From positions 30,581 through 94,580 of the forward strand of contig JANOAN010000013.1 in NCBI GenBank assembly GCA_031411135.1: a stretch of 64,000 nucleotides of DNA, given 5' to 3'. The first letter of the stretch is position 1. Every line of letters starts with the position of its first letter. Both the position numbers and the translations under genes were made by a program. Below the pieces are notes generated by a model that saw nothing but the letters and a program-made list of their open reading frames with translations, was not told the DNA's origin and made no database searches. Below are positions 33,283 through 64,000 of the stretch, piece after piece. The stretch is from a bacterium (lineage in GTDB: Bacteria; Patescibacteriota; Minisyncoccia; Phycocordibacterales; CAIZLB01).

Positions 33283-33314
33283 AAACAAAACACCCCTTCC
33301 GGGGTGTTTTGTAG
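33283..33314 (-). terminator. rho-independent terminator (bidirectional hairpin)
   Basis: aaaacacccc-ttcc-ggggtgtttt. Confidence 0.55.
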
Positions 33315-35182: not shown

Positions 35183-35256
35183 TGGCTGGGGGACAGGGAC
35201 TCGAACCCCGATTAACGGTTCCAGAAACCGCTGTCCTACCTTTAGACGATCCCCCA
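35183..35256 (-). tRNA. tRNA-Gln (anticodon CUG), CCA encoded
   Basis: The cloverleaf was folded by hand. Acceptor UGGGGGA/UCCCCCA with U1-A72 and G73 (GlnRS identity elements). D-stem GUCU/GGAC. Anticodon loop UUCUGGA. T-loop UUCGAGU with G53-C61. Confidence 0.85.
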
Positions 35257-49907: not shown

Positions 49908-50366
49908 TTAATTTCCCTTTGGTAAGCCCTGACAAGCCACGCCATTTTTGTCACCATCAAGGCGGTTTGTGTCCCCCTTTACCCCACCTGATTTCTCAAA
50001 AAAACTCTGTGCTTCGGGCTGGGTAGCAAAATCATCACAATTGTACTGATCTGTATACTTTGCACCAGCTGTACCCTCTGGAACCACGTTTCCTAGCTTA
50101 TCACGTAAAACTTTAGTAATAAAGTTACCTGAAGAATCTCTTTTTAAGTCACCATTAGCATCCCTTTCGATTTTTGAGTCAGACATTGAGTTACCTGAGA
50201 GAATTGAACCTAGGTCAAAATCTTTATTGCCCATTTCCAACCCAAGGGCTCCCAACAAAACAACGATCACCGCTAGAAGAGCTTTTTTCTTACCTGTGCT
50301 TGGTTTTAAGTTCTCTGTATTTAATTTTTCCTTTACTATATTTCCAATTTGATTTTTTATATCCAT
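49908..50366 (-). CDS. secreted Excalibur (extracellular Ca-binding) domain protein
   Basis: N-terminal TM/signal. C-terminal [13 protein letters not shown] fits DxDxDGxxCE. Confidence 0.6.
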
Positions 50367-50530
50367 AAAATTACCAGAGGTACATTATTACTGCTAAAAC
50401 GATTAAAACCACGATAACGGTTATTCTTAAATTTTTATTTCCACGTATATTGTTCATGAAGATATAATAAAACAATTTTTAGGCATAAACAACGTTCTAA
50501 AAACTATCTTTGGAGACAACCTCCACTTAT

Positions 50531-50626
50531 GTAAAAAACCATATTTTTATGGGTGTTTTTCAATGTTTTCTACCAAACAACCGATGTTAGAACTACGATT
50601 ATGGAGAACAAAGGGTATATTTATAT
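50531..50626 (+). repeat. copy A of a ~95-nt hairpin-plus-conserved-block element (degenerate copy)
   Basis: Imperfect hairpin aaaaaaccat..atgggtgttttt, then agaactacgattatggagaacaaagggtatatttatat. It matches copy B at 36/38 positions. Confidence 0.6.
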
Positions 50627-50633
50627 ACTCAAA

Positions 50634-51209
50634 TTATAAAGGATTTGATAATAACAAATCTTCAGAATCTGGAATCGCATAAGCTTCGGCATTGGTTAAA
50701 TGCCCATCGTGTTGATCAATACGCACCAACTGTTTACCTTCTTTAAACACTAAAATTAAACCGTGTTCGCTATCCCATTCACATTTTAAGACGACTTCGA
50801 AATAAATCATTTTATTATTTTTCATATCCCCACCTTCACGATCTCTGTATTTTATATAAATAAATTTTGGGCTTATAAATTTCCATGCGTCTAAATAATT
50901 TTTTATGTGTAGGGGTTCTATATCTACCAACGTAATAGCTTGTTTGTAGTTCTCATACACCAATCTAGATACTTTTTCCTTATAGATTAAATTCAATTCT
51001 AAAAAAGATTTTACTGCGGTTGAAATTTTATTCTCAAACTCCAGCTCATTCTCATTCCAAAAGGCTTCTCCCCAGTCATCTTTGATCGTTATAGTAAACT
51101 GCACTTTCTTATTATCGAAGAATGGAATCTCTATTTCTTCACTACACATCCAGGCACTGATATCGACATCTGCTTTTAGATTACCTAATCCTTTAATATA
51201 GTTATTCAT
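50634..51209 (-). CDS. hypothetical protein (191 aa)
   Basis: ORF with no recognisable motif. Lies inside the repeat-flanked segment. Confidence 0.5.
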   Translation of the reverse strand: MNNYIKGLGNLKADVDISAWMCSEEIEIPFFDNKKVQFTITIKDDWGEAFWNENELEFENKISTAVKSFLELNLIYKEKVSRLVYENYKQAITLVDIEPLHIKNYLDAWKFISPKFIYIKYRDREGGDMKNNKMIYFEVVLKCEWDSEHGLILVFKEGKQLVRIDQHDGHLTNAEAYAIPDSEDLLLSNPL

Positions 51210-51248
51210 ATTTATATATTATCACTACCCCATAGAAAAACCCATTTT

Positions 51249-52745
51249 TTATTTTTTTAGTATTAGAAAATTATCCAGGAAGTCTTGGGCTTTTTTTGTA
51301 AAACTTCTTCTTTTTTCATCTCTCATTTTTTGATATGTAATACCGATAAAACCGAGTCTCCCCTCTCCTTTCAATTTATTGTAATGGGTGCCAACAAAAT
51401 TCCAAAAAAGAGAATCCCATATATCTGACCATTCACCTTTCTTATAATCACTCATTTTTAAAATATAGTTTGAGCCAGATATGTATGGTTTTGTAGTAAC
51501 TAGCCCACCATCAGCATATAGCGCCATACTGTAGACATTTGGGACCATCACCCAGTCATAGGCGTCTATGTAAAGCTCCATAAACCATTTATACACCTGA
51601 TCTGGATGAAACCCACATAAATTCATAAAATTTCCCATAACCATAAGTCTTTTAATATGGTGAGAATACGCTGTTTGCAAGACCTCATTTATCGTATGAT
51701 CCACAGGGCCAATACTTGTCGTTGCAGCCCAAAAACTTTCTGGAACATTTCTATGAGCATTAAAATAATTTGCATTACGAATCTTTGAGCCATCAAGTAT
51801 ATAGATAGCCCGCATATATTCACGCCAGCCAATTATTTGTCTGATAAATCCTTCAACAGAAGCAAGTGACGTGTGAGGGTTTTCTTTAACATATTCAAGA
51901 GTCTGTTCTATGACATATTGAGGAGTGAGTAAGCCTATATTTAAAACAGGAGAAAGAATGCTGTGAAAAAGTAAACCATTCTCAGTGGTGATAGCATCTT
52001 CATATGGTCCAAATGATTCTAGCTTTTCTTTCAAGAATTTCTTTAGCCAAATATTAGACTCTTGTTTTGTGACTGGATAGAAAAAGTAATCGTCATTGCC
52101 ATAGTTTGTTTTAAAATATTTCTCTACATACTCCTTAGCCTCTAATACATACCTGTTTTTAGAGTGCGGGGGCATTTCTGGAAGTTCTAGTCTTTTTGGC
52201 AACTTCTTTCTATTGTCCGTATCAAAACTCCATTTGCCCCCAGTCGGTTTACCGTCTTTTTCAATTAAAATACCTAATCTTTTGCGTTGCCACTCGTAAA
52301 AGTTTTTCATTAGATATGTGCGCCCGCCTTTTTGATTAGAAAAATAATCAATCAAAATCTTCTTTTCTGTTAAGTATAGAGGTGTATCGATAATCTCATG
52401 TCGAATGTTATGTTTTACAAGAGCCTTGATCAACCTTTTTTCAAGCCAATCATCGACTGGGTCACACATCTGAATTTTCGATATATTATATTTTTTCAAA
52501 ATACTGACCACGTCAGAAGTTTCTTTAAGGTCCTTGAATTCAACATACACGACTTCAAAACCCGAACTCACAAGCTCAGCTTCATAAGCTTTCATGCTTG
52601 CACGGTGTAGAACCAACTTCTGTTTATGGAATTTATATTGTGTAAAAAATAATGGTTCCTCTACAATAAAAACCAATACCCCCTTTTTGAGAATAGGGTT
52701 ATTTTCAAAAAGTTGATGTGGATAAATTAGTACAGCTTCTTTCAT
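51249..52745 (-). CDS. deoxyribodipyrimidine photolyase-related protein (DPRP, cryptochrome/photolyase superfamily)
   Basis: GFIRQIIGWREYMR, HHIKRLMVMGNFMNLCGFHP and YIDAYDWVMVPNV blocks are typical of the DPRP family. Confidence 0.75.
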   Translation of the reverse strand: MKEAVLIYPHQLFENNPILKKGVLVFIVEEPLFFTQYKFHKQKLVLHRASMKAYEAELVSSGFEVVYVEFKDLKETSDVVSILKKYNISKIQMCDPVDDWLEKRLIKALVKHNIRHEIIDTPLYLTEKKILIDYFSNQKGGRTYLMKNFYEWQRKRLGILIEKDGKPTGGKWSFDTDNRKKLPKRLELPEMPPHSKNRYVLEAKEYVEKYFKTNYGNDDYFFYPVTKQESNIWLKKFLKEKLESFGPYEDAITTENGLLFHSILSPVLNIGLLTPQYVIEQTLEYVKENPHTSLASVEGFIRQIIGWREYMRAIYILDGSKIRNANYFNAHRNVPESFWAATTSIGPVDHTINEVLQTAYSHHIKRLMVMGNFMNLCGFHPDQVYKWFMELYIDAYDWVMVPNVYSMALYADGGLVTTKPYISGSNYILKMSDYKKGEWSDIWDSLFWNFVGTHYNKLKGEGRLGFIGITYQKMRDEKRRSFTKKAQDFLDNFLILKK

Positions 52746-52876
52746 ATTATTTTTTTTGTTTGGTTCGACACTTTTTTTATTTTAAAACGGTGTGAGTATT
52801 TTAAACACAGTCTACAATTTATTGTTTGGTGGATATAAGTACATTATACCAGTTCCTCAATACCATTCTCCTACAG

Positions 52877-52970
52877 AAAAACACCCATATAAAATGGGTG
52901 TTTTTCGATTGCGCGCCGTAGTGAACGAAGTGAGAACTGCGATTATGGAGAACAAAGGGTATATTTACAT
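52877..52970 (+). repeat. copy B of the ~95-nt hairpin-plus-conserved-block element (intact copy, encodes a 35-aa ORF)
   Basis: Perfect 10-bp hairpin aaaacaccca-tataaa-atgggtgttt, then agaactgcgattatggagaacaaagggtatatttacat. Plus-strand ORF MGVFRLRAVVNEVRTAIMENKGYIYIPDLQNSTPR. Confidence 0.6.
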
Positions 52971-53025
52971 TCCAGATTTACAGAACTCTACTCCACGGTA
53001 GTTCACACTATATCTCCAAATCAAA

Positions 53026-53733
53026 TTATAATCTCTTGCTTAATCTCTTATATGGAACTCTATTGGTAGTAAGTCTAGGATAAACCGTGTTTAAAACATC
53101 AAACTTATTATTTTCATTATATGTAATCATAATCTCTCCTATATCCTTAATATTAAGCTTTTTTAACTCGTTATGAACATTATGAAAAAAGTTTTCTTCA
53201 ATTTCTCCAGAAGACCCTAGTGTAATGAACAAATTTGTGGATCCGAGATCAAAAGCGTAATGTTCAAGCTTTTTCTTTAAGAAAGACATGAATTCTACAA
53301 TATTACAATTCCCCTTATAACTCTTTAGTTGAAAGGCTCTTAATGCATCTTCGCCAAGCAAACACACGTCTGTATAATGATTTTCTTTAATATTTATCTT
53401 TAAAGATTCCAGAGAGTTTATATTATGTTTAGTTGGATTGAAGCCATCTTTCATAAAGAAACAGACCCTGCTATCTTTTGGAAAAAAGGTCAGCATCATA
53501 TAGGCCACTGTAAATATTTCGACATCATCCTTATCATTCACAAGTGAGTACTGACTAGCAATCTCGTGCATTTTTTCTTTATTTCTTAAAAAATAAGGAA
53601 AATCCCCTTGCAAGAGACTTGTCTCTTCAAATATGCGCTTCGCAAGTTGTTCTCTAGAAGTGGCCTCAAAAATACGTCTGATATCCTGGACATCAAAACA
53701 AACTAGATTTAATTTTTTATGATAATAAATCAT
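53026..53733 (-). CDS. hypothetical protein, last gene of the MTase/helicase operon
   Basis: ORF 53026..53826. Start chosen at MIYYHKK, which gives a 17-nt overlap with the upstream gene. Confidence 0.5.
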   Translation of the reverse strand: MIYYHKKLNLVCFDVQDIRRIFEATSREQLAKRIFEETSLLQGDFPYFLRNKEKMHEIASQYSLVNDKDDVEIFTVAYMMLTFFPKDSRVCFFMKDGFNPTKHNINSLESLKINIKENHYTDVCLLGEDALRAFQLKSYKGNCNIVEFMSFLKKKLEHYAFDLGSTNLFITLGSSGEIEENFFHNVHNELKKLNIKDIGEIMITYNENNKFDVLNTVYPRLTTNRVPYKRLSKRL

Positions 53734-54475
53734 CGGAATACTTTTTAAGTGTTCCGTCCATGAGAGAAGCAAACAGATAAGTTGTGTCAACGATACTCTT
53801 ATAAAGCATAAAACTTTCATCTGCAAACTTGTTTAAAGTCTCATCGAACTTATTTTTGTCTTTCTTAAGTTCGTATAATGCCGCTTCGCCAAATGGACCT
53901 CCATGAACACCAGAAGACATATTTGTATACTCAATCAACCTTTCTAATAAGTACTCTTTTTTGTATCTCTTTATAGTCTCATTTTTCTCGTTATTGTTAT
54001 TTTCTATCAAGTAATGGAAAATCTTCTCAATACGAAAACCTTTGGCAACTTCTCTTATTTCATTATTATGATCACCCTTTGTACTCCATTTAGTTTCTTC
54101 TGGATAAACTATCTTTTTGTAATTAATAACTTTATCTACAGACTCTAAATCTTCATTGGCTCTAAGCGACTGGTAATAGGCTTCACCTGCAGAATCGGTA
54201 TCTTCGTTTAAAGCTTTAACAAATATGTATAAGTGCCTAAAGCTATGCTCAATCAAGGATCTGAATAAAATTGAAGCAGAATAAGGATCGCCACTTTTAC
54301 ATGAAAATAAAATAGTATTTATCAAATAACCACTCTTTGGAACAAAAGAGACCACTGCTTTGCCCGTATATTTAAACTTACTCTTACTTAAAGACTCTAT
54401 GATAAATGGTAGAGATGTCTGAATTTTTTTAGACAAGTTTTCATTTAAGACAAAATTTTCATCAATAGTAGCCAT
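53717..54475 (-). CDS. hypothetical protein (252 aa)
   Basis: ORF in tight operon spacing. No recognisable motif. Confidence 0.5.
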   Translation of the reverse strand: MATIDENFVLNENLSKKIQTSLPFIIESLSKSKFKYTGKAVVSFVPKSGYLINTILFSCKSGDPYSASILFRSLIEHSFRHLYIFVKALNEDTDSAGEAYYQSLRANEDLESVDKVINYKKIVYPEETKWSTKGDHNNEIREVAKGFRIEKIFHYLIENNNNEKNETIKRYKKEYLLERLIEYTNMSSGVHGGPFGEAALYELKKDKNKFDETLNKFADESFMLYKSIVDTTYLFASLMDGTLKKYSDDLLS

Positions 54476-54494
54476 AATTTTGTAGCTTTATATA

Positions 54495-54809
54495 CTAATG
54501 ACTACCCTTAGTTTGCTTTTCAAGCCTATCTATAATTTTGTCCTGGTTTGATTTTATCTCATTCAACAAATCCTTATTTTCATTTAACAAAACAGAACGT
54601 TCTTCAATCCTACTTTCATATTCTTTATACGTAACTGAAGAAAATCTAAAAGAATCGATGATAATTTGAATGAAAACCAATATAACAACTATCAAGACTG
54701 CGTAAATGATAGTCTGGGTAGAATTATATCTTCTGTCGGTATGCTCATTTGCCTTTGCAACAGCCCCGTTATAAACATCCTTGTTATTTTTAAAATTTAT
54801 TGGAGACAT
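54495..54809 (-). CDS. small single-pass membrane protein with a C-terminal coiled coil
   Basis: 104 aa. TM IIYAVLIVVILVFIQIII, then a heptad-like YKEYESRIEERSVLLNENKDLLNEIKSNQDKIIDRLEK. Confidence 0.5.
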   Translation of the reverse strand: MSPINFKNNKDVYNGAVAKANEHTDRRYNSTQTIIYAVLIVVILVFIQIIIDSFRFSSVTYKEYESRIEERSVLLNENKDLLNEIKSNQDKIIDRLEKQTKGSH

Positions 54810-54814
54810 ATATT

Positions 54815-55063
54815 TTATAGTGATAAATCAGGACACACAATTTTAAGAGCAAATTGATGAACTCTACCTGTTTTATTATCGATAACAACGACCATCGGTA
54901 TCCTTGGACCCCCACCTAGAGATATAACATTTGGATCTTGCTGAATGTCTAAAAATACTAAACCATCAACAAGTGTTAGGTCCCCGCTCAAACCAGCTGG
55001 ACCTGCAATCTTTTGTAATCCTTGCTGAATCTTTTCTTTATTGTTTTGAAAAAAATTATTCAT
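54815..55063 (-). CDS. hypothetical small protein (82 aa)
   Basis: ORF 9 nt downstream of the MTase stop. Confidence 0.45.
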   Translation of the reverse strand: MNNFFQNNKEKIQQGLQKIAGPAGLSGDLTLVDGLVFLDIQQDPNVISLGGGPRIPMVVVIDNKTGRVHQFALKIVCPDLSL

Positions 55064-55071
55064 GTATGTAT

Positions 55072-58000
55072 TTAGTTAAATTTTCTGATAATATCCTTTT
55101 CCTCATGGTTTAATTCATACAAATCCATAACCACTTCGTCTATTTCAAGTTCTAGATCTTTTGCATCGTTACTATCAGACTGTTTTAACTCAATAATCTT
55201 TTTAACAATATCAATAATATATTTTTGTTTATTTTCATTCGCGACCACAATAGGAATCTTTTTAATTTCATTACTGTTGATCCTCAAATAACCTCCAGCG
55301 AGCGAGAGCGAACTAAAATAAGTTTTGTACCACCAAGAAATGAGCTTTGAATTTAGAATACCTAGAAGATAGAGAAGATCGATTTTATCATTATCTAGAA
55401 TAATTGTTGTGGATTTTCCTGCTATATATTCTCCATTATCATAAAAAACTTCTAATCTCTTTGACATACCAGCAATAATGAGTTTCCTACCACTACTCTG
55501 CTTAAAACGGTTTGGTAATAGTTCAATTAGCTTTTCATCCAAGGCTATTGGTTTATCATAAGAATCCTTAATATACTGTGTTCTCTTGTTTCCCCACAAA
55601 GAAACGTAAGGGTCTATGGTTCCAGAGTTTATTAATTTTTTAAATTTGTCATCGTCTGTATTTACCTCTTTAATAATTTCTTTTAGTTGATATGCTTCAT
55701 TTACAGTCGCTGCACCCAGAACTAAATTATTAACTTTTTCAAGCGGAGGGTTTTTTGAAATCTTAACAATAACCTCTAATTCTTGAGGTTTAATAAAATA
55801 TCTATCCCAATAGATATCTGCATAAAATAAGGAATGCGGCACTGTATTTATTAAGTCATATTGCTCAATGTCTTTCATTTTTGTCAAAATAACACTCGAG
55901 CCAACATTTATCGAGTTGGACACTTGAAAAACTATAGGGTATACACTAGCCTCTTTAAAGACATTAACATCTGAATAATCCCTTATATATTTTATGTTTT
56001 TTGTTTGCATGTACGATCTAATAGATTCTGAATATTTCGCGGCAATTAATTTATTTGGAACAATATAGGAAAGATTTCCATAATTACTCAAAAACTTTAT
56101 TCCTTGCTCTATAAAAACGACAAATAAGTCCCAATTACCACTTGCACATTTATATTGTGATGTATAAAACTCTCGCAAGGCAGGATCATCTCTTACCATA
56201 GTTTCAGAATCTACATATGGTGGGTTCCCGATGACAACGTCAAACTTTTCTTCCATTCCAAACATCCATTCAGGATCAAACCAAGAATTTGAGTGGTTAC
56301 TGAATGGATCCCAAAGAGTCAATTTTTGAGTCAATTCACCGATATTTGAGCCGAAAGCTGACAAAGCTTTGTTAAGAATACTTTTTTGAGCATTCGTGAA
56401 TTTTAACTTCATTTCATTCTTTCTGTGACTATTACACGAGAAGTAATCTGACATTATTTCAGATAATTCTACTATGCCAGAATGATCATCAAACATGCTA
56501 ATTTTTTCTGATCTAGGTAGACCAATTAAGGTATTTGCACACACAAACTTAAAATCCAAGTTAGGTAAGGGTTCAATTCCCCTATTCGGCTTGTCATCAT
56601 ATATTTCTGATTCAACAACCAAAGTAAGAAAACATCTCAAACGAGATACGTCTACGGCGATAGGCTGAATATCCACCCCGAAGATTGAATTCTTTATAAC
56701 ATCAAGCTTTCTTGTGTAATCAAATGGATTGGAATGGACTTCATTAATTATTTTTTGCTTATATAACTCTGGTACCCCTTTTAATTTATGATTGAGCCAT
56801 AATTTACAATCTGGATCTATAGATTTTAAGATGAAAACAATTTTCTGCAATGCTCCTATTGGGTAGGCTCCAGAACCACAAGCTGGGTCAAGGAGTCTTA
56901 AAGACTCTATCGCATCAACAATCTTTTGCTTCTCGCTATCAGTTAAAGGGTACTCTACATCGTCATTCAAATCATAGCTTACAAGAGCAGATATTTTATT
57001 TATATCAATATCTGTCTTTATCTTAAGATACTCAATGAGAGACTGATCCACCATATATTCTACAATTTGGCGTGGGGTATAAAAACTACCAGTTCTTTTA
57101 CGCTCGCTACCTCCCGTTTCTGGATTAATTTCAGCAAGAAGGTTTTCAAAAATTCTACCAAGCATTTCTGGGTCAACAGAAAGTTCCTGGTCAAACGCTG
57201 TATTTTCATCGATAGTAAAATTGTATGTTTCCAACAACCCAAAGAAATCTCTAAACCAGACATCATTAACTTTGAGAGTATTTATATATTTTGAAGCAAA
57301 GGTTCCACGATCTAACTCATAATAGTCATCTAACTGCGGATTAAAAAGTCCACCATTGAGATAAGGGACCTTATCAAACAAATCATTACGGATATCTCGA
57401 GAATCAATACTAGTGTTTAGTACACCAAAAAATAAAGGCTCCAATATTTCATGGTAGTAATTACTATGAACAACCATTGAGGAAAGAAGTTCATCTGGGA
57501 TTAATTGTCCAGCAACAGACTTCTTTTGCTTCAAAAACCAACAAAACATAATACGACCAATTAGCCTGACGGCAAAACTTTTACGAATATTCTGATCTTC
57601 TTGCGATACTCCAGGGAGACTCAAGTAATTAGCTTGTTTTGAAATAAGTTCATCAAAGTATTTAGCTACCTCGAGATAGAATTGCTTATTAACGACCTCT
57701 ACAGAAAACCTACTCAATAAATCTTCACTGTTTTTTACTTTCCCTTTTTTGATCAACTGTTGCTGTGGTGTGTTAACCTTTGCATTAACACCTAAATAAA
57801 ATGAGTATCTTCTTGCATTAGAATACTTCCTTACCGCTTTATTCTTCTCATTTAGATCTAGAGATATAGTTAAGTAAGATAATCTGTAATTATCTGATTG
57901 GTTTTTGAATACTACCAAAGCTCGATGTATCCAGTGATCGGCAAGGATCTTAAAAGCATCAGTAGCAATAGCAATCCTGGGATCATTTTCTCTCTCGTGA

Positions 58001-58185
58001 TCCATCTCTAAAACATACAAATCCAGCGACTCACAAAAACCCAAGATTTTTGCTTTTGTAATCTCTTTATACCTATCTTTTTTGATTAGAATATCCTCTT
58101 CCTTCTCTACAAAATCTTCTGGTAGGAAGTCCTTTGCGAAGTGAAGAAAATGTTCAGATTGATACTTTTCATTAAATTTCATCAT
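55072..58185 (-). CDS. gamma-class N6-adenine DNA methyltransferase, large (1037 aa), PglX/DrmMI/Eco57I-like
   Basis: Motif X GSFYTP, motif I LDPACGSGAY, motif IV VIGNPPYV, in gamma order. Long helical N-terminal domain and a ~350-aa C-terminal TRD-like region. Confidence 0.85.
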   Translation of the reverse strand: MMKFNEKYQSEHFLHFAKDFLPEDFVEKEEDILIKKDRYKEITKAKILGFCESLDLYVLEMDHERENDPRIAIATDAFKILADHWIHRALVVFKNQSDNYRLSYLTISLDLNEKNKAVRKYSNARRYSFYLGVNAKVNTPQQQLIKKGKVKNSEDLLSRFSVEVVNKQFYLEVAKYFDELISKQANYLSLPGVSQEDQNIRKSFAVRLIGRIMFCWFLKQKKSVAGQLIPDELLSSMVVHSNYYHEILEPLFFGVLNTSIDSRDIRNDLFDKVPYLNGGLFNPQLDDYYELDRGTFASKYINTLKVNDVWFRDFFGLLETYNFTIDENTAFDQELSVDPEMLGRIFENLLAEINPETGGSERKRTGSFYTPRQIVEYMVDQSLIEYLKIKTDIDINKISALVSYDLNDDVEYPLTDSEKQKIVDAIESLRLLDPACGSGAYPIGALQKIVFILKSIDPDCKLWLNHKLKGVPELYKQKIINEVHSNPFDYTRKLDVIKNSIFGVDIQPIAVDVSRLRCFLTLVVESEIYDDKPNRGIEPLPNLDFKFVCANTLIGLPRSEKISMFDDHSGIVELSEIMSDYFSCNSHRKNEMKLKFTNAQKSILNKALSAFGSNIGELTQKLTLWDPFSNHSNSWFDPEWMFGMEEKFDVVIGNPPYVDSETMVRDDPALREFYTSQYKCASGNWDLFVVFIEQGIKFLSNYGNLSYIVPNKLIAAKYSESIRSYMQTKNIKYIRDYSDVNVFKEASVYPIVFQVSNSINVGSSVILTKMKDIEQYDLINTVPHSLFYADIYWDRYFIKPQELEVIVKISKNPPLEKVNNLVLGAATVNEAYQLKEIIKEVNTDDDKFKKLINSGTIDPYVSLWGNKRTQYIKDSYDKPIALDEKLIELLPNRFKQSSGRKLIIAGMSKRLEVFYDNGEYIAGKSTTIILDNDKIDLLYLLGILNSKLISWWYKTYFSSLSLAGGYLRINSNEIKKIPIVVANENKQKYIIDIVKKIIELKQSDSNDAKDLELEIDEVVMDLYELNHEEKDIIRKFN

Positions 58186-61100
58186 GCTATTAATTCTTCG
58201 GACAATACGATTAATTTACCGTGATCGTTCGCCCTATCTGCTGTCTGGAATATACTTTCTAGATATTTATTCGGCACAAGCTCACGGAGGGTCTGTAATG
58301 CACCGTCTGGATTAATTTTATCTATCTTCAAATCAGCCATCTCTTTAAGAACTCCCGTAGGAAAACCGTCTAGGTCTTTAATAACTCTTATAAGATCAAT
58401 GCATAGGTCTTTAGCCTGTGGGTATATTTCAGAGAGTAACTTAACCTTATTAAGGGCATCCTGTCTTCTCTTGCTATCAATTGGTGCTTTAGTATTCTCT
58501 TTAAAAATATGCTCTTTCGCCATCTTGTATATTGGATCGAAATTAATACTTGTAGCAAAAGGTTTCTCATCATCCCTCATATCATCAAAGAGAGGTAATG
58601 CGACCTGTGGAGAAACAATTTTTACAGTTTCTGGAGTCTCACCAAAAGCAAAGACATAATTTCCGCTCTTCTTTGCAAAAGCTACAACACCAGAAATTTT
58701 TCCTTTTCTAGCTATTCTGGATCTATAAGGTATCTCTGCTACCCTCTTCATAATTGCAGTATCATCTTTAATCTTGAGCCAAGTATTTCTATATGGAGCA
58801 TCCCAGGACAGACTCTCATTTTTAGAGTTCTCTTCCTTATACTGCTTCGCAAAATAGTTTTTAAGGTCTTCATCTGACGTAAGCGTCTTTGTATCTTCTC
58901 CCAAAAGAGTGTGAATAAGATCCATCTTTAGAGTGGAGATGGCTTTTGTTCTTGTCTCTTGTTCACCTGTTAGCGTAGGGAAAAAGTTAAAGATATAGAG
59001 TTCATCGAATACCTTTTTGTTGATACGGTTTATACGTCCAACTCTCTGGATGACACGAGTAGGGTTATACGGAATGTCATAGTTAATGATCGTACCAGCA
59101 CGGTGAAGGTTAAATCCTTCCGAAATAGCGTCTGTAGCTATAATGAGATCAAAATCGTCTGATTGCTTTGAAGTATCCAGTCCTGCATCAAAGTTTTTTC
59201 TGATCACCTCCTTATTTGCATCAGAAGCATCCTCGGAGCTGTATTTCAAAACACGCATCATCCCATCTTCACTCAATCTTTCATAGATATAATTAGCGGT
59301 ATCAGAAAATTCAGTAAAGATAATTATTTTTCTTTGTTTATTATTTTTTATAGATTCAGTTATCTTACCCCTCAAGAATTCATACTTTGGATCATTTTCA
59401 TTATTTTTCCATTCTGCCTGGATACCTTTCAATAGTTCAATATCCTTTTTAAGATCTTTTTCAAAATTAACGTCTATCTCTTCTACAGGAATTCGCATAA
59501 GCCCCTTATCTTCAAGTCTAGAGAATAATTCCTCTCTTTCACCATCTTCCATTTCATTAAGATCCTCCACATCTGGAAGCACTCCCTTCTTAAATATTGG
59601 CACCTCTTTTCGATTGACATACCAATCAAGCATTATCTCTGATGAATTGATCATGTTCTTAAGAGAGATGTTGAACGCTCCTACAGAACTCTCAAAACGC
59701 CTAACGAGAAGCCTTCGCATAAACCGAGCAACGTTTGCCTGTCCCTGTGTAATACGTTGAATTTTTTCTCCTATAGACATTCCATCTTCATCATCCTCAC
59801 TTTCGGCAAGCTTCCTTATAAAATCTGAACCCGCACGAATGTAACTTGCTGGTTTGTATCGCGCACCGATAAAGCTCGTGCTTCGATCTTCTGGAGCAAT
59901 CTTCTCTAAAGTATTTACATATAAATCAAACATATCCCCTAGGTCATACTCTAGTAATTCTGGATCTCTGACCTTTGCAAAAGATACACCTTGAGCCTTT
60001 AAGTCGTTTTTATAATCTTCAATTTCCTCGAGATCCAGTCTAGATCTACGAATAATGAGAGGCTCTATCATCTTTCTTAATTCATCAGCAATCGCGTGTA
60101 ATTCAGTCCTAACTTCAATGTTTTCTGCATCTGTTGCTGTACTACTTTTTCTTATTTCCTTTCGGATCGCTTTATATCGCTTAAAGAGCATATGGAATGA
60201 CATACTCAAGTTTTCTACCGTCCTAATTGTCGACTGTCCTGGTGTACTGAATAGCTTTATAAGGGCGTAGATGTCTTTAGGGTCATTGTTAAATGGAGTA
60301 GCAGACAAAGCCATCACATAATTACCAGCACAAAGTTGGTGAAGTATTTTGTAGTTTTCAGTGTCTTCGTTTCGATGTTTGTGAGCTTCATCAAGAATGA
60401 GAAGGAGTTTACCGTCCCTATTTCCATGTCTATCTAGTGCTTCTTGAATTTTTCCAGTTGAATATACAAAACCTTTAAAATCAAACTCTGACATGTAATC
60501 TTTCCATTGAGTTTCAAGGTGTGGAGGTGCAACGATAACAGTAGTCATCCCGAGGTTATGAGCTATAGCAGATGCCACTATACTTTTACCAAGCCCTACC
60601 ACATCAGCAATGATCACCCCACCGAACCTTTTGATACGATCGATACCGAGGTTAATAGCATCCTTTTGATATTTTAGATCTGAAAACTTTCCACCAGTAA
60701 TATGCTTCGGTGTTTTCATATCCTCAATTTCAGTTACGGCAAAATATTCTGCAAGAACTTTGTAGTACATGAGAAGCGGATCTGGTAAAGAGTACAGCCA
60801 AATTCTATTCTTAATCTCTTTGACAAAGTTTTCTGACGACTCAAGATCGGTAATTACAATGTTGTCTGGATTATTCCAGTGATCCTCAAACATTTTTACG
60901 TGATTTTGGTAATAGTGATTTTCCTGGAGGATAATATTATGCTCGCCCTGTCCCTTTAATCCAGAGAAAGTTAGGTTACTTGAACCCATAATGATCATTC
61001 CAGGCGTAATACCGTTTGTAGAAAATTCTTTTTTATTATGAAGTATGTAAAATTTTGAATGATTAGCTTGAGCAGTCTTCTTGATCTGCAAACTCCCATC

Positions 61101-61472
61101 TATTATTTTGTCTAGAAAAATCTTAAAGGCATCTTGTGATTCTTCATTATCAAAATAATCAGTGTCGTTAAATATCTTTGAAAAGTTTTCAATATAATCT
61201 TCCTTCACGCCAGATCTAGAATTAACACGAGTTTCTACAACATGGGAGTCGAAGTTCACATCTTTCATTGTAGAAACCTTATCAATAATTTTCTTATCAA
61301 TATCCATTCCTACCAAGATCCTAATCTCTTTGTCTTTCAGTTCATTATGAAGGTCTTTGAAGCCAGAAAAATAGAAATATCCCACAAGAGCATCTACCCG
61401 ATCACAGTTAGGGAGTATGCTTTTTAGGTTCGATGACAGTGTATTTGTACCTTCATTAGTTATAGACGACAT
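58182..61472 (-). CDS. PLD-family (HKD) nuclease domain fused to an SNF2-family helicase (1096 aa)
   Basis: N-terminal HSKFYIL...GSSNLT (HxK..GSxN). SNF2 motifs GLGKS, DEAH (LILDEAHKHRN) and LSATPFNN. Helicase-C (ATDAISEGFNLH...QRVGRINR). A 4-nt ATGA overlap with the MTase gene. Confidence 0.85.
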   Translation of the reverse strand: MSSITNEGTNTLSSNLKSILPNCDRVDALVGYFYFSGFKDLHNELKDKEIRILVGMDIDKKIIDKVSTMKDVNFDSHVVETRVNSRSGVKEDYIENFSKIFNDTDYFDNEESQDAFKIFLDKIIDGSLQIKKTAQANHSKFYILHNKKEFSTNGITPGMIIMGSSNLTFSGLKGQGEHNIILQENHYYQNHVKMFEDHWNNPDNIVITDLESSENFVKEIKNRIWLYSLPDPLLMYYKVLAEYFAVTEIEDMKTPKHITGGKFSDLKYQKDAINLGIDRIKRFGGVIIADVVGLGKSIVASAIAHNLGMTTVIVAPPHLETQWKDYMSEFDFKGFVYSTGKIQEALDRHGNRDGKLLLILDEAHKHRNEDTENYKILHQLCAGNYVMALSATPFNNDPKDIYALIKLFSTPGQSTIRTVENLSMSFHMLFKRYKAIRKEIRKSSTATDAENIEVRTELHAIADELRKMIEPLIIRRSRLDLEEIEDYKNDLKAQGVSFAKVRDPELLEYDLGDMFDLYVNTLEKIAPEDRSTSFIGARYKPASYIRAGSDFIRKLAESEDDEDGMSIGEKIQRITQGQANVARFMRRLLVRRFESSVGAFNISLKNMINSSEIMLDWYVNRKEVPIFKKGVLPDVEDLNEMEDGEREELFSRLEDKGLMRIPVEEIDVNFEKDLKKDIELLKGIQAEWKNNENDPKYEFLRGKITESIKNNKQRKIIIFTEFSDTANYIYERLSEDGMMRVLKYSSEDASDANKEVIRKNFDAGLDTSKQSDDFDLIIATDAISEGFNLHRAGTIINYDIPYNPTRVIQRVGRINRINKKVFDELYIFNFFPTLTGEQETRTKAISTLKMDLIHTLLGEDTKTLTSDEDLKNYFAKQYKEENSKNESLSWDAPYRNTWLKIKDDTAIMKRVAEIPYRSRIARKGKISGVVAFAKKSGNYVFAFGETPETVKIVSPQVALPLFDDMRDDEKPFATSINFDPIYKMAKEHIFKENTKAPIDSKRRQDALNKVKLLSEIYPQAKDLCIDLIRVIKDLDGFPTGVLKEMADLKIDKINPDGALQTLRELVPNKYLESIFQTADRANDHGKLIVLSEELIA

Positions 61473-61546
61473 TTGGACATTTTAGCACTTTACAGCTCAA
61501 AAATACAGGTTTTTAGCTCGTAAATGAAGACATTCTAGCTATGGGT

Positions 61547-62002
61547 TTACGGGAGGTAATTTCGCAATTTTTGGAGTTTCTTTTGAAGCCAACTCTGGTT
61601 TAGATTTTTTAGTTCATTATAACGAAGAGACACCTGGCAGATTATCCTCCTAATATGCTTATTGTTTGGTATCTTATTTTCTTGATCCGTAGCTCTGAAA
61701 AGCTCAAGTACATAGTCAATCCCCTTATCTGGATTTGCCTCTGCAAAATCAAAAGATGTGTAAATTATTCCCTGGATATAATCAACAAAACCAGTCTCCA
61801 TCCATACCGAGGGTCGATAGGTACCAAACTGTAACTTATGGGTCCTCATTGAGAGGATTAAATCATTGATAAAATTATATGACTCGCCCGCCGATTCCTC
61901 TGGTATATCGCAGTTGGGGCACTTTAGATCCTTTTCATAGGCAATAAAAAATTGTCCACATTTCTTACATTCATATTCTGCTGTGCGGATATGGTAAGTC
62001 AT
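61547..62002 (-). CDS. zinc-ribbon protein (CxxC-x12-CxxC), unknown function
   Basis: 151 aa with CKKCGQFFIAYEKDLKCPNCD. Lies 75 nt upstream of the PLD-SNF2 gene. Confidence 0.5.
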   Translation of the reverse strand: MTYHIRTAEYECKKCGQFFIAYEKDLKCPNCDIPEESAGESYNFINDLILSMRTHKLQFGTYRPSVWMETGFVDYIQGIIYTSFDFAEANPDKGIDYVLELFRATDQENKIPNNKHIRRIICQVSLRYNELKNLNQSWLQKKLQKLRNYLP

Positions 62003-62295
62003 TTATTATTTGTGTGATCTCTAACTCTGTCATTTTTAACAAGCTCATAGATATCTTCATCTAAATCATATTTAAGACTCAAAAACCACCAGATTAGTAT
62101 TGCTACAGGGAGAGTAAGGACAGCCATCAAGATTAATAAGCAAATAAATGATAGAAAATCGGCAAAGGTATGAAACTGATTTCCATAAAGGACCTTTATT
62201 GTTGCAAGCGTCCCTAATAATAATGCACATGAAATAAATCCAAACGCCTGGAGCACATCAACATGTTTCTTTATTTTTTTATTGTTTTCATTCAT
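61999..62295 (-). CDS. small 2-TM membrane protein
   Basis: ORF 61999..62352. Start chosen at MNENNKK to avoid overlap with the upstream gene. A 4-nt overlap with the zinc-ribbon gene. Confidence 0.4.
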   Translation of the reverse strand: MNENNKKIKKHVDVLQAFGFISCALLLGTLATIKVLYGNQFHTFADFLSFICLLILMAVLTLPVAILIWWFLSLKYDLDEDIYELVKNDRVRDHTNNK

Positions 62296-62299
62296 AAAT

Positions 62300-62602
62300 T
62301 TAGTAATCGAGAATATCAAGAACATCTCCGTATTTTTCACGAAATTGTTCATGTGTCATATTCATTTTTTTCCTGTACCCTTCAAGTTTTTCGTAATTAG
62401 AAAATTTCATAGCAATTTTGCCTCCCAATATAAAAATAATGCACACCGATACCAAATCAAAACCTCTATAAAAATTAAAACGAGCATCTTCGTCTCCAAT
62501 ACTAAAAAATAGAACGGCTAAACCAACAATTAGCAAGTACTGGAAAAAGTTCTTCCAAAATACTTTGTCTGTTGTTGGTAATCCTTCTTTTTTGTGTACC
62601 AT
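62300..62602 (-). CDS. small 2-TM membrane protein, first gene of the operon
   Basis: 100 aa, hydrophobic core (YLLIVGLAVLFFSIG...VSVCIIFILGG). Confidence 0.45.
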   Translation of the reverse strand: MVHKKEGLPTTDKVFWKNFFQYLLIVGLAVLFFSIGDEDARFNFYRGFDLVSVCIIFILGGKIAMKFSNYEKLEGYRKKMNMTHEQFREKYGDVLDILDY

Positions 62603-62636
62603 AATTTAAGCAACCAAAAAGCCCATTACATGAGTC

Positions 62637-62719
62637 AGTGACTTTCGTCACTCGTACCAGTTTCCCGATACGGCCGATCAGAGCAAACCCCATATAATGG
62701 GTTCTTTGGCTCTGATCGG
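62637..62719. promoter_or_regulatory. nested inverted repeats in a divergent promoter region (putative operator)
   Basis: gtgac-tttc-gtcac. An 11-bp perfect inverted repeat ccgatcagagc...gctctgatcgg encloses the palindrome cccATATAATggg, a -10-like hexamer. Confidence 0.45.
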
Positions 62720-62850
62720 AGCTTCTTTCACCATGCCACCGATTGCTCGATGGTTTAGGCTACTTTTGGACTTATTTAGTTGTATATCAATGATAGCATG
62801 TTACTCCCCGCCGATAAACACTATTCTTTGTTTTAGGGTAAAATATAACC

Positions 62851-63582
62851 ATGAAGAACCAAGACCTATGTAAAGTACTCCAAAATAAGTCCTTGATAAG
62901 AGATTTCCTGTCTGGCCTAGTTGCCGACTCCCAAGTACACAAGTCATCGGAGTTTATAATCCCTTACCTTACTATAAAAAACCTAGCACCTAAAAAATCA
63001 GAAGTTAAAAGTATCCTTACCCTTCTATCGGGGGAAGGTGTGGTAAATATCATAGGTGTAGCATCCAATATATCGGAAAAAATATTCCCAACTAATTTTC
63101 TCGATATGGAGCTATCTCATGACCTTCATGCTAGCACCATTGAAGCTGTAAAAGTAAAAATAGATAGAAGTAAGATAATTAAAGTGTTAAATGCTGTAGA
63201 GGAAGCCTTGGAGACAAAGAGTACACCAGTAATTTTAAACTTATCTCGACGAGGAAGATTATATAGATTTATTAATAACCAAGAAGAATTCCACTCAATG
63301 ATGCCTCGTAGTCTCGACTACAGAATAATTGAATATTTTGCAAAACATCGATCTGAGCATTTATCTGCCAAAGAACTGGCTAATATCCTGGTAATTAAAA
63401 AGATAGATGAAGATAAGAAAACTCTTCCAGAGAAACGTATCAGTGATAGAATACGTGCAATTAAAAAGATTATCTTAAAAAAGTTCACTGGGATTGATCC
63501 AGACAGCTTCATACCTCACGCTAATGAAAATAATGGATATTGCCTCGGGAAAAATATAAAAATTAAGATTTCAGATTCTTAA
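62851..63582 (+). CDS. hypothetical protein with a possible C-terminal winged-helix (regulator-like)
   Basis: 243 aa. The C-terminal LSAKELANILVIKK...RISDRIRAIKKIILKKF resembles a DNA-binding wing. Transcribed divergently from the operon. Confidence 0.4.
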   Translation: MKNQDLCKVLQNKSLIRDFLSGLVADSQVHKSSEFIIPYLTIKNLAPKKSEVKSILTLLSGEGVVNIIGVASNISEKIFPTNFLDMELSHDLHASTIEAVKVKIDRSKIIKVLNAVEEALETKSTPVILNLSRRGRLYRFINNQEEFHSMMPRSLDYRIIEYFAKHRSEHLSAKELANILVIKKIDEDKKTLPEKRISDRIRAIKKIILKKFTGIDPDSFIPHANENNGYCLGKNIKIKISDS

Positions 63583-63696
63583 AACTCCTACTTGTTTATA
63601 ACTTCCTCCAAAGCCTTATAGTAAGGGCTTTTTTTATGCCAAAAACGTAGACGTTGAGGGTGTTTTGAGCCAGTACTTCCTTAATACAATCTAAGC

Positions 63697-63945
63697 ATGC
63701 TGGGAACAAATAGCCCTAGCAAAAGGTCGAAAGACTCCATCATGCTTACCTATCAACAAATCGAAAAATTTCAACTGATCTACAAAGAAGTGGTCGGTGA
63801 AGAAATATCCAAAGAAGACGCACTACTTCAAGGTGCGAAGCTTGTTCGATTGATGGAGATTATTTATCAACCAAGTAATAACACACAACAATTATCACAA
63901 CCGACAGAAATTAGTAACGAAAAAGAATTATCAAGTAAAAATTAA
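63697..63945 (+). CDS. hypothetical small protein
   Basis: 82-aa ORF. No motif. Confidence 0.35.
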   Translation: MLGTNSPSKRSKDSIMLTYQQIEKFQLIYKEVVGEEISKEDALLQGAKLVRLMEIIYQPSNNTQQLSQPTEISNEKELSSKN

Positions 63946-64000
63946 TCAAATGAATAAGAAGGAAATAGAAAAAATAATCCAGGAGCAGTCAATAAAACTC

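Follow-up and report, generated by a model that had tools for sequence, protein, structure and literature searches.

The 3' ends of tRNA genes are typical targets of tyrosine integrases and unusual ones for serine integrases, whose normal reaction is confined to the pair attP and attB. SCC elements accumulate as tandem arrays at one site, and the known accretion of ICE, IME, and CIME elements involves tyrosine recombinases and att repeats of tens of nucleotides. The mobile elements of CPR bacteria are poorly known.

Archaeal viruses and plasmids encode SSV-type ('suicidal') integrases, in which attP lies within the integrase ORF, a tRNA gene is the target, the gene is split into N- and C-terminal parts, and stubs accumulate as pseudogene relics; these enzymes are tyrosine recombinases and have been described as 'so far restricted to archaea' (PMC7253208). 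In the mycobacteriophages BPs, Brujita, and Charlie, which exhibit integration-dependent immunity, attP is located in the 3' end of a phage coding gene, and the C-terminus differs between the viral and integrated forms (PMC3694055). For serine integrases, the motif bound by the zinc-ribbon domain (ZD) is displaced in attB by 5 bp, toward the site centre (PMC3783163).

Here we analyse two direct repeats in a 64,000-nucleotide stretch of DNA from a CPR bacterium, the whole of which is referred to as the window. A sequence-only reading had proposed several identities for the repeats, and among them the att-like option was of the correct kind, namely attachment-site junctions of site-specific recombination. 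With a probability of roughly 80%, both repeats are attL-type junction scars of large serine recombinase (LSR) islands that integrate at the 3' end of tRNA-Asp(GTC).

Results

The repeat pair and its relatives

The two repeats, copies A and B, are real and lie where the sequence-only reading had placed them, each with a similar hairpin. The block at 50582-50626 matches that at 52926-52970 at 41 of 45 positions, and its central part (50589-50623 against 52933-52967) is identical at 34 of 35 (97% over 35 nt). A 27-mer from this part, with <=3 mismatches allowed, has exactly 2 matches in the 64-kb window and 0 in shuffled sequence, and sensitive blastn found no third copy in the window or in the 4 kb beyond it. 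The features of the locus are as follows.

50533-50561, no strand assigned: hairpin A, a degenerate terminator hairpin of the tRNA-Asp type and putative B arm of an old attachment site; its left arm is without CAC.
50562-50580, no strand assigned: copy A spacer, read directly from the sequences as unrelated to the copy B spacer.
50581-50629, plus strand: copy A, probably an old, truncated recombinase stub (nhmmer E=7e-12; alignment; synteny).
50634-51209, minus strand: DUF6985 gene (Pfam PF22481, E=7e-23), between the two putative scars.
51249-52745, minus strand: DPRP gene, cryptochrome/photolyase family (Pfam PF04244, E=6e-56).
52843-52851, minus strand: extended -10 box TGGTATAAT, read from the sequence; putative promoter 3' of the tRNA-Asp terminator.
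52876-52904, no strand assigned: hairpin B, a perfect 13-bp stem (z = -6.7); probable original intrinsic terminator of tRNA-Asp and B arm of attL.
52910-52915, no strand assigned: core TGCGCG (CGCGCA on the gene strand), the putative crossover region, common to attL, attR, the empty attB, and the uninterrupted attP.
52916-53001, plus strand: copy B, P' arm, with the probable last 29 recombinase codons and stop, ending …AVVNEVRTAIMENKGYIYIPDLQNSTPR (in-frame reconstruction; L031/P0129; codon-position pattern).
53002-53017, no strand assigned: conserved tail TTCACACTATATCT, just 3' of the recombinase stop, where the island interior would start.
52916-64000 and on to window-equivalent 68046, no strand assigned: integrated island, 15.1 kb in all.
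Island contents in order: a 235-aa gene, a DUF5677 gene, a type IIG restriction-modification gene, an HKD-Snf2 helicase, small ORFs, and LOOT RNA.
Island beyond the window, plus strand: genes of 243, 82, 74, 412, and 197 aa, then the recombinase (66435-68057).

Copy B spans 52876-53017 from hairpin through tail. The element of about 95 nt first described is real, and its conserved unit is longer at this copy (52907-53017). The spacer between hairpin and block, given earlier as about 25 nt, measures about 20 nt. The 35-codon ORF MGVFRLRAVVNEVRTAIMENKGYIYIPDLQNSTPR (52894-53001) does begin inside the right arm of hairpin B. Copy A had rightly been called degenerate with respect to its hairpin, and beyond that it retains just 15-16 codons of the unit. 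These codons, DVRTTIMENKGYIYI, belong to the 'GATGTTAGAAC' variant, while copy B carries GAAGTGAGAAC, and they are cut off 4 nt before the DUF6985 stop codon. The copy A spacer has lost the core TGCGCG and looks like what is left of a 34-nt mini-hairpin insert, TTTGTTTGATTTATCAAACAAG, that the related loci L026, L027, and L016 carry at the orthologous stub.

An exact 20-mer from the block was too strict a probe, with no match in GTDB genomes, JGI metagenomes, or IMG/VR; a search pattern permitting synonymous codon changes recovered the stubs that it failed to detect. At least 16 stubs are observed in CPR genomes and metagenomes, often in tandem. As the window has just two copies, one might consider chance similarity or what remains of a simple local duplication, and a single-locus duplication without further copies had been named as the refuting outcome. 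Related copies are present at >=12 CPR loci, the expectation by chance is 0, the two copies carry different variants, and each has relatives elsewhere that are closer to it in flanking sequence than A is to B. The related copies and the alignment of copy A with its orthologue refute this explanation, to which we assign a negligible probability.

A recombinase gene probably divided between the island ends

The sequence-only reading had noted the lack of a recombinase in the window. A 540-aa LSR gene is situated just outside the window, 2.4 kb beyond its end, on the plus strand of L007 (13585-15207, window-equivalent 66435-68057), which is 100% identical to the window over the overlap. The protein contains the Pfam domains Resolvase (PF00239, 3e-17), Recombinase (PF07508, 2.5e-7), and Zn_ribbon_recom (PF13408, 7e-11), and its gene occupies one end of the island, where it abuts attR. 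Its frame reaches the core TGCGCG, reads two codons into tRNA-Asp in antisense, and stops, giving the end …MMRG.

When the LSR end is joined to copy B at the core, the frame continues and yields …EVLRPMMRAVVNEVRTAIMENKGYIYIPDLQNSTPR before a stop. The restored C-terminus, …LRAVVNEVRTAIMENKGYIYIPDLQNSTPR, runs uninterrupted in a related recombinase fragment. This fragment (L031/P0129) is an unbroken 3' third of a recombinase gene (residues 413-566, 69% identity) with the order P arm, TGCGCG, P' arm and the same 30 residues; at 69% amino-acid identity it represents a homologous attP site and not the circular form of this island itself. Because the LSR end and copy B join in frame at the core and restore this C-terminus, attP appears to lie inside the recombinase gene. 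The displaced part amounts to 29 of 567 residues, and every recognisable domain is kept in the 540-aa part.

Full-length members of the 90%-identity recombinase cluster are uniformly of the shorter form: 9/9 are 540 aa and end in P[IM][LM]R[GE] and a stop. A related island, L032, has the same backbone with different cargo, and its recombinase ends at the same core beside a tRNA-Asp of different sequence, which is why its final residue is E and not G. No circular or episomal form with an intact 567-aa recombinase was found; the exact reconstructed sequence was missing from the protein collection searched, and relatives were absent from IMG/VR.

The tRNA-Asp site, occupied and empty

The attR core lies at 68047-68052 and is followed by tRNA-Asp in antisense. 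The 30 nt after the core at window-equivalent 68047 are 30/30 identical to the tRNA-Asp(GTC) 3' end in L011, L016, and L030; these 30 nt are the whole tRNA flank visible at attR, as the assembly contig ends there. On the minus strand, the tRNA-Asp(GTC) 3' end at attR would read …CATCAGCCGCGCA. The contig, from the public Logan collection, ends at 68076, that is, 68047 + 29. This is the unitig break expected for k=31, which we take to be the k value of that assembly, if the population is polymorphic at the core.

An empty attB is observed in L011, L016, and L030, where the hairpin and promoter unit found beside the copy B core comes straight after tRNA-Asp…CGCGCA. The conserved 'B unit', CTGTnGGnGnATGGnAnnGnGGAACnnTGGTATnAT, contains the -10 box and is likewise found 3' of tRNA-Asp in these three loci. 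In the alignment with L011 and L016, the empty site matches the window attR (30/30) to the left of the short core and copy B to the right of it. On the tRNA strand, the core CGCGCA comprises the last acceptor-stem bases, the discriminator base, and two further bases. The reconstructed attP junction reads …CCAATGA TGCGCG CCGTAGTG… (also given as CTTCGTCCAATGA-TGCGCG-CCGTAGTGAACGAAG), and the empty attB junction reads …TTTTTCGAT TGCGCG GCTGATGGG… (also given as GGGTGTTTTTCGAT-TGCGCG-GCTGATGGGTGTTGATCC). The P arm matches the reverse complement of the P' arm at 12/17 positions, as judged by eye, and the distance from hairpin motif to core is about 5 nt shorter in the B arms than in the P arms. 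The antisense strand of the retained recombinase 3' end forms a 13-14-bp terminator-like hairpin directly after the tRNA. Derivation of the hairpin flank from recombinase coding sequence was considered and rejected, as the local alignments are not significant (z mostly <3), though the hairpin motifs look alike.

Coding and RNA readings of the repeat

Among the stubs, variability at the three codon positions is 35/15/48, the stop is either TAG or TAA, and the diverged stubs in L027 and L013 are conserved at the amino-acid level only. A coding-like substitution pattern and a conserved stop codon could mark an independent, conserved small-protein gene of 30-35 aa on the plus strand, with several copies in each genome; in the window and in L011 the hairpin contains an in-frame ATG, and NCBI annotates a 69-aa ORF here (P0128). 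However, no start is conserved. The internal ATG is ATC in L028, upstream in-frame stops occur in L026 and L027, a frameshift occurs in L025, and conservation begins at a CTG or TTG codon. The ORF directly adjoins a bidirectional terminator, which leaves no room for a promoter or ribosome-binding site. The sole candidate among 5.8 billion protein clusters is the window's own annotated ORF, a Pfam search of the peptide gave no match, and the same residues form the recombinase C-terminus in L031. An independent small-protein gene is therefore very improbable. The in-frame reconstruction, L031, and the codon pattern argue instead that the 'peptide' consists of the displaced C-terminal 29 codons of the recombinase family.

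The resemblance of 'MENKGYIYI' to the N-terminus of GIY-YIG/T5orf172 proteins was pursued and dismissed. Nine matches in Clostridia (MENKGYIYILTNPSF…) are such proteins, and they share nothing with the element past the nine codons set by the search pattern; since only these codons are common, the match is a pattern coincidence.

The element might also be viewed as a minus-strand small RNA or 3'-UTR module, in which a conserved RNA of about 105 nt lies between a TATAGT promoter and a terminator. In 12/12 loci examined it is co-oriented with the flanking genes, the terminator follows it on the minus strand, and a -10-like motif, TATAGTGT, is kept in 8/13 copies. Such an RNA is nonetheless extremely improbable: across 11 sequences RNAalifold gives -2.5 kcal/mol with 0 compensatory or covarying pairs, so a conserved structure is lacking, and the diverged copies keep amino acids and not nucleotides. 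No Rfam family matched, the matches below the gathering and E-value thresholds being terminator-driven, and the tRNA-Asp context accounts for both orientation and terminator.

The MITE-like option fails, as there are no terminal inverted repeats around the 95-nt unit and no target-site duplication at the repeats, the flanks of which are not duplicated. Several other identities were also rejected. An integron attC site requires R''/R' boxes (RYYYAAC … GTTRRRY) that fold as single strands, together with an IntI tyrosine recombinase; here there is no overall palindrome, a hairpin exists at one end only, the conserved part is coding sequence, and IntI is missing. A riboswitch or attenuator was excluded because, past the terminator, the downstream gene is served by a separate promoter. 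No switch of GC skew or gene orientation supports a dif/Xer site, and ARAGORN found no tmRNA or permuted tmRNA, the C-terminus not being tag-like.

The island, the DPRP–DUF6985 segment, and tandem stubs

The island carries defence genes as cargo, and GC content falls to 0.30-0.35 across the region. A PHROGs search of the island ORFs gave no match and thus no evidence of a phage. None of the homologues of the neighbouring 235-aa gene is followed by the block, and LOOT RNA has no description in the main text of the paper expected to cover it.

The two repeats had also been viewed as the ends of one mobilised cassette. Copy B, however, is the left end of the 15.1-kb island, which runs to the right, away from DPRP–DUF6985, and copy A is probably an older scar from a different sequence variant. 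DPRP–DUF6985 is not part of the present island; the tRNA-Asp terminator-and-promoter unit is situated immediately upstream of DPRP. A mobile two-gene cassette with the repeats as working ends would involve loop-out and re-insertion between directly repeated stub-plus-hairpin units, via RecA or a recombinase acting in trans, and would resemble cis-mobilisable elements or phage promoter–stem-loop cassettes. The arrangement of hairpin unit, gene or genes, and stub does recur, with genes of 293/297 aa (L011, L016), 226 aa (L015), 410 aa (L027), and 204 aa (L028), and with DPRP–DUF6985 in the window. Moreover, the order in L011 (tRNA-Asp, core, hairpin unit, gene, stub, core, hairpin unit) is the product expected of the insertion of an attL-type circle, and DPRP adjoins a different tRNA (tRNA-Gln) in relatives, which indicates that it has moved. 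Yet copies A and B are of different variants, copy A is without the core and therefore could not be used by the recombinase, and the identity left between the copies is just 35-45 nt plus 13 nt. Neither a circle nor an empty-cassette haplotype was seen, and successive integrations followed by decay explain the arrangement equally well. We regard a working cassette as quite unlikely.

Alignment and synteny identify copy A as the orthologue of stub 1 in L026/L027, a close relative. The L027 locus has the same architecture as the window: tRNA-Asp, the core, a 45-nt remnant of a recombinase 3' end, two genes, and a stub are followed by the hairpin-and-promoter unit, one gene, a second stub, a second unit, and TspO. 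In L011, L016, and L015, an apparently empty attB and a stub are 0.9 kb apart, and the nearest 6 kb contain no recombinase. Extra steps are needed for these three loci, such as deletion, circle recombination, or an old tRNA duplication. Tandem stub arrays in which each stub has its own hairpin unit go beyond canonical chemistry, since serine integrases are normally confined to attP × attB.

Discussion

We propose that, in this island family, the recombinase ORF contains attP near its 3' end, about 90 nt short of the stop. The sequences suggest that attP and attB recombine at the core TGCGCG and that the LSR catalyses this reaction. Because attP sits within the ORF and the crossover would fall at the core, integration would split the recombinase gene. 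The gene body would remain at the attR end and encode the 540-aa protein ending in …MMRG, while the last 29 codons would pass to the attL end and become fused to the original terminator hairpin of the tRNA. The antisense hairpin in the retained recombinase 3' end presumably acts as a terminator, replacing the one displaced from the tRNA by integration. Copy B would then be the intact attL of the present 15.1-kb defence island, and copy A what is left of a previous integration at this locus, its core and both flanks since deleted, a history drawn from one related locus. DPRP–DUF6985 would be what now separates the tRNA-Asp terminator-and-promoter unit from the old scar. Tandem units may have accumulated by successive integrations and decay, with an old attR perhaps converted into a new attB by a deletion of about 5 bp.

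It is conceivable, though doubtful, that attP in the recombinase ORF serves as a built-in, integration-dependent switch, with a circular 567-aa form and an integrated 540-aa form that differ in activity, stability, or directionality. Only the circular element would then make the 567-aa enzyme with its conserved LRAVV…GYIYIPDL…TPR tail, while the integrated, tail-less form might excise or be inactive, thereby allowing for control of directionality without a separate directionality factor. If true, the archaeal SSV-type self-splitting integrases would have here their first counterpart in bacteria and among serine recombinases, and the stub arrays at tRNA-Asp would be the fossil record of this counterpart. 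Since serine integrases are genome-engineering tools, a natural pair of tailed and tail-less enzymes is directly testable for directionality.

As junction scars, the repeats bear on annotation. Start-less short ORFs beside a terminator near tRNA-Asp in CPR genomes are probably recombinase tails and not peptide genes or small RNAs; NCBI calls its 69-aa protein at such a tail. The stubs could also mark where islands end and where integration occurred in the past. Patescibacteria would thereby have a defined family of serine-recombinase islands that target tRNA-Asp and in which defence cargo is swapped, as the type IIG restriction-modification gene and HKD-Snf2 helicase here are contrasted with an OLD/UvrD pair in a relative.

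Comparison with known systems

A serine recombinase with attP in its own gene and a tRNA target is unusual. The placement of attP in the recombinase 3' end, together with an antisense terminator for the tRNA, would be an economical design; among described systems, archaeal tyrosine integrases and mycobacteriophage repressors come closest to it. As in the serine integrases (phiC31, Bxb1, A118, SPbeta, and SCC with CcrAB), one end of the element encodes a protein with Resolvase, Recombinase, and zinc-ribbon recombinase domains, and the short att sites have just 6 bp of core in common and lack a long duplication of the target. The B-arm motif, about 5 nt nearer the core than the P-arm motif, may reflect the ZD motif shift reported for that group (PMC3783163). 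In contrast to these systems, attP here appears to lie within the recombinase's own 3' coding region, so that integration would change the recombinase C-terminus; the islands insert at a tRNA gene 3' end; and the replacement tRNA terminator is probably encoded antisense within the recombinase ORF.

The SSV-type integrases share with this locus an attP within the recombinase ORF, a gene split to the two ends of the element, a tRNA target, and relic stubs. Unlike them, the enzyme here has the domain set of a serine and not a tyrosine recombinase, and whereas the split inactivates the SSV enzyme, here 29 of 567 residues are displaced and all Pfam domains stay in the 540-aa part. Mycobacteriophage immunity is comparable in that attP occupies the 3' end of a gene and the C-terminus would differ between two forms. 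In that system, however, a repressor gene is affected, the integrase belongs to the tyrosine recombinases, and the lost tail serves as a degradation tag, whereas the gene here is the recombinase itself. Finally, as in ICE/IME/CIME accretion, generations of elements and remnants lie side by side at one tRNA-linked site with att-derived repeats between them, and decayed units keep att sites when the recombinase is gone, as in the first unit of L027. Unlike in that accretion, the repeat here would consist of a recombinase C-terminal stub and a tRNA terminator.

The two repeat copies and their surroundings

Both repeats were found where the sequence-only reading had placed them, and their blocks at 50582-50626 (copy A) and 52926-52970 (copy B) are identical at 41/45 positions, with 34/35 matching in a 35-nt core of the block. 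Searched for with up to 3 mismatches, a 27-mer taken from this core has two matches in the window and 0 in shuffled sequence. By sensitive blastn, neither the window nor the adjoining 4 kb contains a further copy. Hairpin B is a perfect 13-bp stem, CAC is missing from the left arm of hairpin A, and the 35-codon ORF of copy B spans 52894-53001. The hairpin-block spacer of roughly 20 nt is unrelated between the copies, a difference that simple duplication would not yield. A third bidirectional terminator of the same stem type, ACAAAACACCCC-TTCC-GGGGTGTTTTGT, lies after a SWIB-domain gene at 33285-33312; the stem type is therefore not unique to att units.

All genes around both repeats are encoded on the minus strand. 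Past roughly 50.3 kb, GC content drops to 0.30-0.35, from ~0.39 before.

Features in order of transcription (minus strand)
Upstream: type IIG restriction-modification gene and HKD-Snf2 helicase gene
235-aa ORF
Block B, then hairpin B (52876-52904)
TGGTATAAT promoter
DPRP (cryptochrome/photolyase-family gene)
DUF6985 gene
Block A, starting 8 nt past the DUF6985 stop codon, then hairpin A (50533-50561)
28-34-aa membrane ORF
Excalibur-domain gene
MscL gene
Further downstream: TspO gene and His_Phos_1 gene

The repeat block as a sequence family

An exact 20-mer from the block had zero matches in GTDB genomes, JGI metagenomes, and IMG/VR. The search that succeeded used a pattern permitting synonymous codon changes, which matched five genomes of the candidate phyla radiation (CPR), including one Doudnabacteria, one Taylorbacteria, and one Parcubacteria, and a related pattern matched seven metagenome loci. 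Nine Clostridia proteins of GIY-YIG type also matched and are unrelated pattern coincidences. All CPR members share a unit of ~105 nt, TGCGCG-CCGTAGTGGACGAAGTGAGAACTGCGATC-ATGGAGAAYAAAGGGTATATTTACATTCCAGAT…TAG-TTCACACTATATCT, which in most copies is directly preceded by a terminator hairpin of variable sequence. By nhmmer, copy B is a full family member (52907-53017, E=1e-32) and copy A is a 49-nt fragment (50581-50629, E=7e-12). Three other loci (L013, L027, and L028) hold a diverged second copy 0.8-1.4 kb from the first. Upstream of the hairpin at L022 (5146-5200), L028 (874-930), and L029 (stub upstream region), in stub orientation, lies CCGSC(T)TTCAAGTCCC, which resembles a tRNA T-arm and may be a fragment of another tRNA; neither ARAGORN nor Rfam called a tRNA there.

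A recombinase beyond the window edge

A public Logan contig (L007) matches window positions 50347-64000 at 100% identity and extends as far as window-equivalent 68076. At window-equivalent 66435-68057 it encodes a large serine recombinase (LSR) of 540 aa with the domains Resolvase, Recombinase, and Zn_ribbon_recom. The C-terminus reads …EVLRPMMRG*, where the DNA is CCAATGA-TGCGCG-GCTGATGGGTG…, and splicing this end to copy B (…CGAT-TGCGCG-CCGTAGTG…) at the core, TGCGCG, is in frame and yields …EVLRPMMRAVVNEVRTAIMENKGYIYIPDLQNSTPR*. When 1.84 billion representative proteins were searched without a profile, the search recovered P0129, a protein of locus L031, whose first 80 residues are homologous to the window LSR end (…KTKFEDP…ALGWNY…RLELE…QNT…VL.P) and which runs straight on past the LSR-like part into …VLRAVVNEVRTAIMENKGYIYIPDLQNSTPH*. 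The L031 DNA matches LSR residues 413-566 at 69% identity, uninterrupted through TGCGCG. Judged from these alignments, the repeat block encodes the C-terminus of the recombinase itself. All full-length members of the 90% LSR cluster (9/9) are 540 aa long and end in P[IM][LM]R[GE]*.

The displaced 3' piece of the LSR gene, hereafter the stub, is coding sequence and not an independent gene. Its variability by codon position is 35/15/48 outside the searched pattern, TAG and TAA exchange at its stop position, diverged stubs keep amino acids and not nucleotides (LRGLVNEVRTAIQQHNGYLYTSNL* and WLGTVNNVRTVIMAQTGYINIPNL…), and the opposite strand has many stop codons. An RNA element was considered, and the stubs contain no conserved RNA structure (RNAalifold -2.5 kcal/mol, no compensatory pair), nor does the repeat element match Rfam. 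As for a small gene in its own right, the stubs have no conserved start codon: an internal ATG is replaced by ATC in L028, an in-frame stop lies upstream in L026/L027, and L025 is frameshifted. A protein search returned only the window's own annotated 69-aa ORF.

The tRNA-Asp target and the extent of the island

Past the core at the LSR end, the next 30 nt match the tRNA-Asp(GTC) 3' terminus of three loci, L011, L016, and L030, without a difference. There, the tRNA (…CATCAGCCGCGCA) is directly followed by AAAAACACCCAT…ATGGGTGTTTTT and then CTGTGG.GTGATGGGA..GTGGAACTGTGGTATTAT, and this hairpin-and-promoter unit is the one that follows the core in copy B. When the empty site is aligned with the window junctions, the match switches exactly at CGCGCA, the core on the tRNA strand, from window attR on the left to copy B on the right. 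This exchange identifies copy B as attL, in which the tRNA terminator forms the B arm and the recombinase tail the P' arm; the island runs from 52916 to about 68046 (15.1 kb). Three further observations agree with it: the common ending of the 90% LSR cluster, a related island, and the end of the Logan contig. The related island, L032, has the same backbone, and its cargo is an OLD-family nuclease with a UvrD helicase. The L032 LSR stops at this core too, but the tRNA-Asp next to it has another sequence, for which reason the last LSR residue differs.

The Logan contig ends at 68047 + 29, and we infer that this is the unitig break expected for k=31, which we take to be the Logan assembly value, in a population with polymorphism at the core. 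The contig's left end, 50347, implies that the population also varies at ~50377, where the 28-34-aa ORF has its stop codon, ~160 nt outside copy A; no att-like sequence occurs at ~50377. The T-loop of this tRNA-Asp(GTC) is unusual, GGGATCAACACCC, with A in place of the near-universal T54 (L011 5339-5411, L016 1556-1628, L030 61-133; window-equivalent 68047-68076), and L015 and L032 have the usual GGGTTCAAGTCCC in their tRNA-Asp.

On the tRNA strand, the retained LSR 3' end forms a 13-14-bp hairpin with a U-rich run directly 3' of the tRNA (folding z-scores -5.8 to -7.3). The stem is CACCTC/GAGGTG in L007/L032 versus CACCC/GGGTG in L031/L027, with pairing kept. By inference, this embedded antisense hairpin replaces the displaced tRNA terminator. 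A hairpin-like motif lies ~5 nt nearer the core in B arms than in P arms, which fits the known displacement, by 5 bp, of the zinc-ribbon-domain (ZD) binding motif in attB relative to attP of serine integrases (PMC3783163). The offset is also compatible with a possible origin of the hairpin units as former P arms of earlier islands; local alignments of the hairpin flank with recombinase coding sequence were not significant.

Defence cargo differs between the related islands.

Window, 55072-61472 (-): HKD(PLD)-Snf2 helicase of 1096 aa, whose gene overlaps that of a 1037-aa type IIG restriction-modification enzyme
L032, 2309-4934: OLD-family ATPase/TOPRIM protein and UvrD-like helicase, a pair resembling the Gabija system

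Within the island, the minus-strand gene arm is headed by a full-length LOOT RNA at 62637-62761 (-), which scores 91.6 bits with Rfam RF03000 (gathering score 46.4). Since this region is kept in L032 (5890-6116 versus L007 9750-9979, ~74% identity), LOOT appears to belong to the backbone of the LSR island family.

DPRP–DUF6985 and the proposed history of copy A

The DPRP–DUF6985 pair is outside the island. The names given to DPRP homologues are Parcubacteria, Paceibacterota, and Minisyncoccia, which places the source bacterium in the CPR/Patescibacteria. In the closest relative found through DPRP, L003/L004 (78% identity), the gene directly follows tRNA-Gln (L003 9704-10001, L004 2-299). Next to the window tRNA-Gln (35183-35256), the following gene is an unrelated 194-aa ORF, while DPRP is found 16 kb off, at the tRNA-Asp locus; DPRP has thus moved in the window genome. 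Downstream of the tRNA-Asp terminator, the promoters belong to the extended -10 type, TGGTATTAT / TGTGATAT (L011 5440-5480; L016 1660-1700; window 52843-52851). Only ~7-8 nt separate the -10 box from the next gene's ATG in L011 and L016, a short distance that suggests leaderless mRNAs.

A close relative, L026/L027 (TspO 92% identical, His_Phos_1 protein 86%, next gene 80%), has the same architecture as the window, where the intact island occupies the first position and DPRP–DUF6985 the second.

L026/L027 locus, gene strand
tRNA-Asp, core, 45-nt remnant of the recombinase 3' end
169-aa and 174-aa genes, diverged stub 2, hairpin unit
410-aa gene, stub 1, second hairpin unit, 385-aa ORF, TspO

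Copy A and L026 stub 1 share the GATGTTAGAAC variant and traces of a 34-nt mini-hairpin insert, which argues that copy A is an older scar orthologous to stub 1; in copy B the variant is GAAGTGAGAAC. Copy A now lacks its core and both ends. The repeats are scars and not a functional element.

The mini-hairpin, ACTTTGTTTGATTTATCAAACAAGAAGTGCACTTGT, sits between two TGCGCG cores just upstream of the stub in several genomes (L026 10230-10290; L027 1400-1434; L016 stub region; remnant at window 50562-50580); it may represent a tiny insertion that duplicated its target, or else an island that collapsed. For the origin of the second-position units, the possibilities are successive integrations regenerating attB, insertion of circles with an attL-type site, or ancient tRNA duplication. 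At L011, L016, and L015 a stub lies 0.9 kb from an apparently empty attB, an arrangement unexplained by canonical serine-integrase chemistry.

Comparison with known systems

A search of the open-access literature, of incomplete coverage, found no paper joining Patescibacteria, serine recombinase, integrative, and tRNA, nor any described serine recombinase with attP in its own gene. Among the integrases of archaea, the SSV-type tyrosine enzymes have attP within their own ORF, which integration splits, a feature 'so far restricted to archaea' (PMC7253208). In some mycobacteriophages attP lies at the 3' end of the repressor gene, and the protein is trimmed by integration (PMC3694055). On the sequence comparisons, the repeats are best filed as serine-integrase att junctions of a system that has its attP within the recombinase gene, targets a tRNA, and carries a predicted terminator on the antisense strand.
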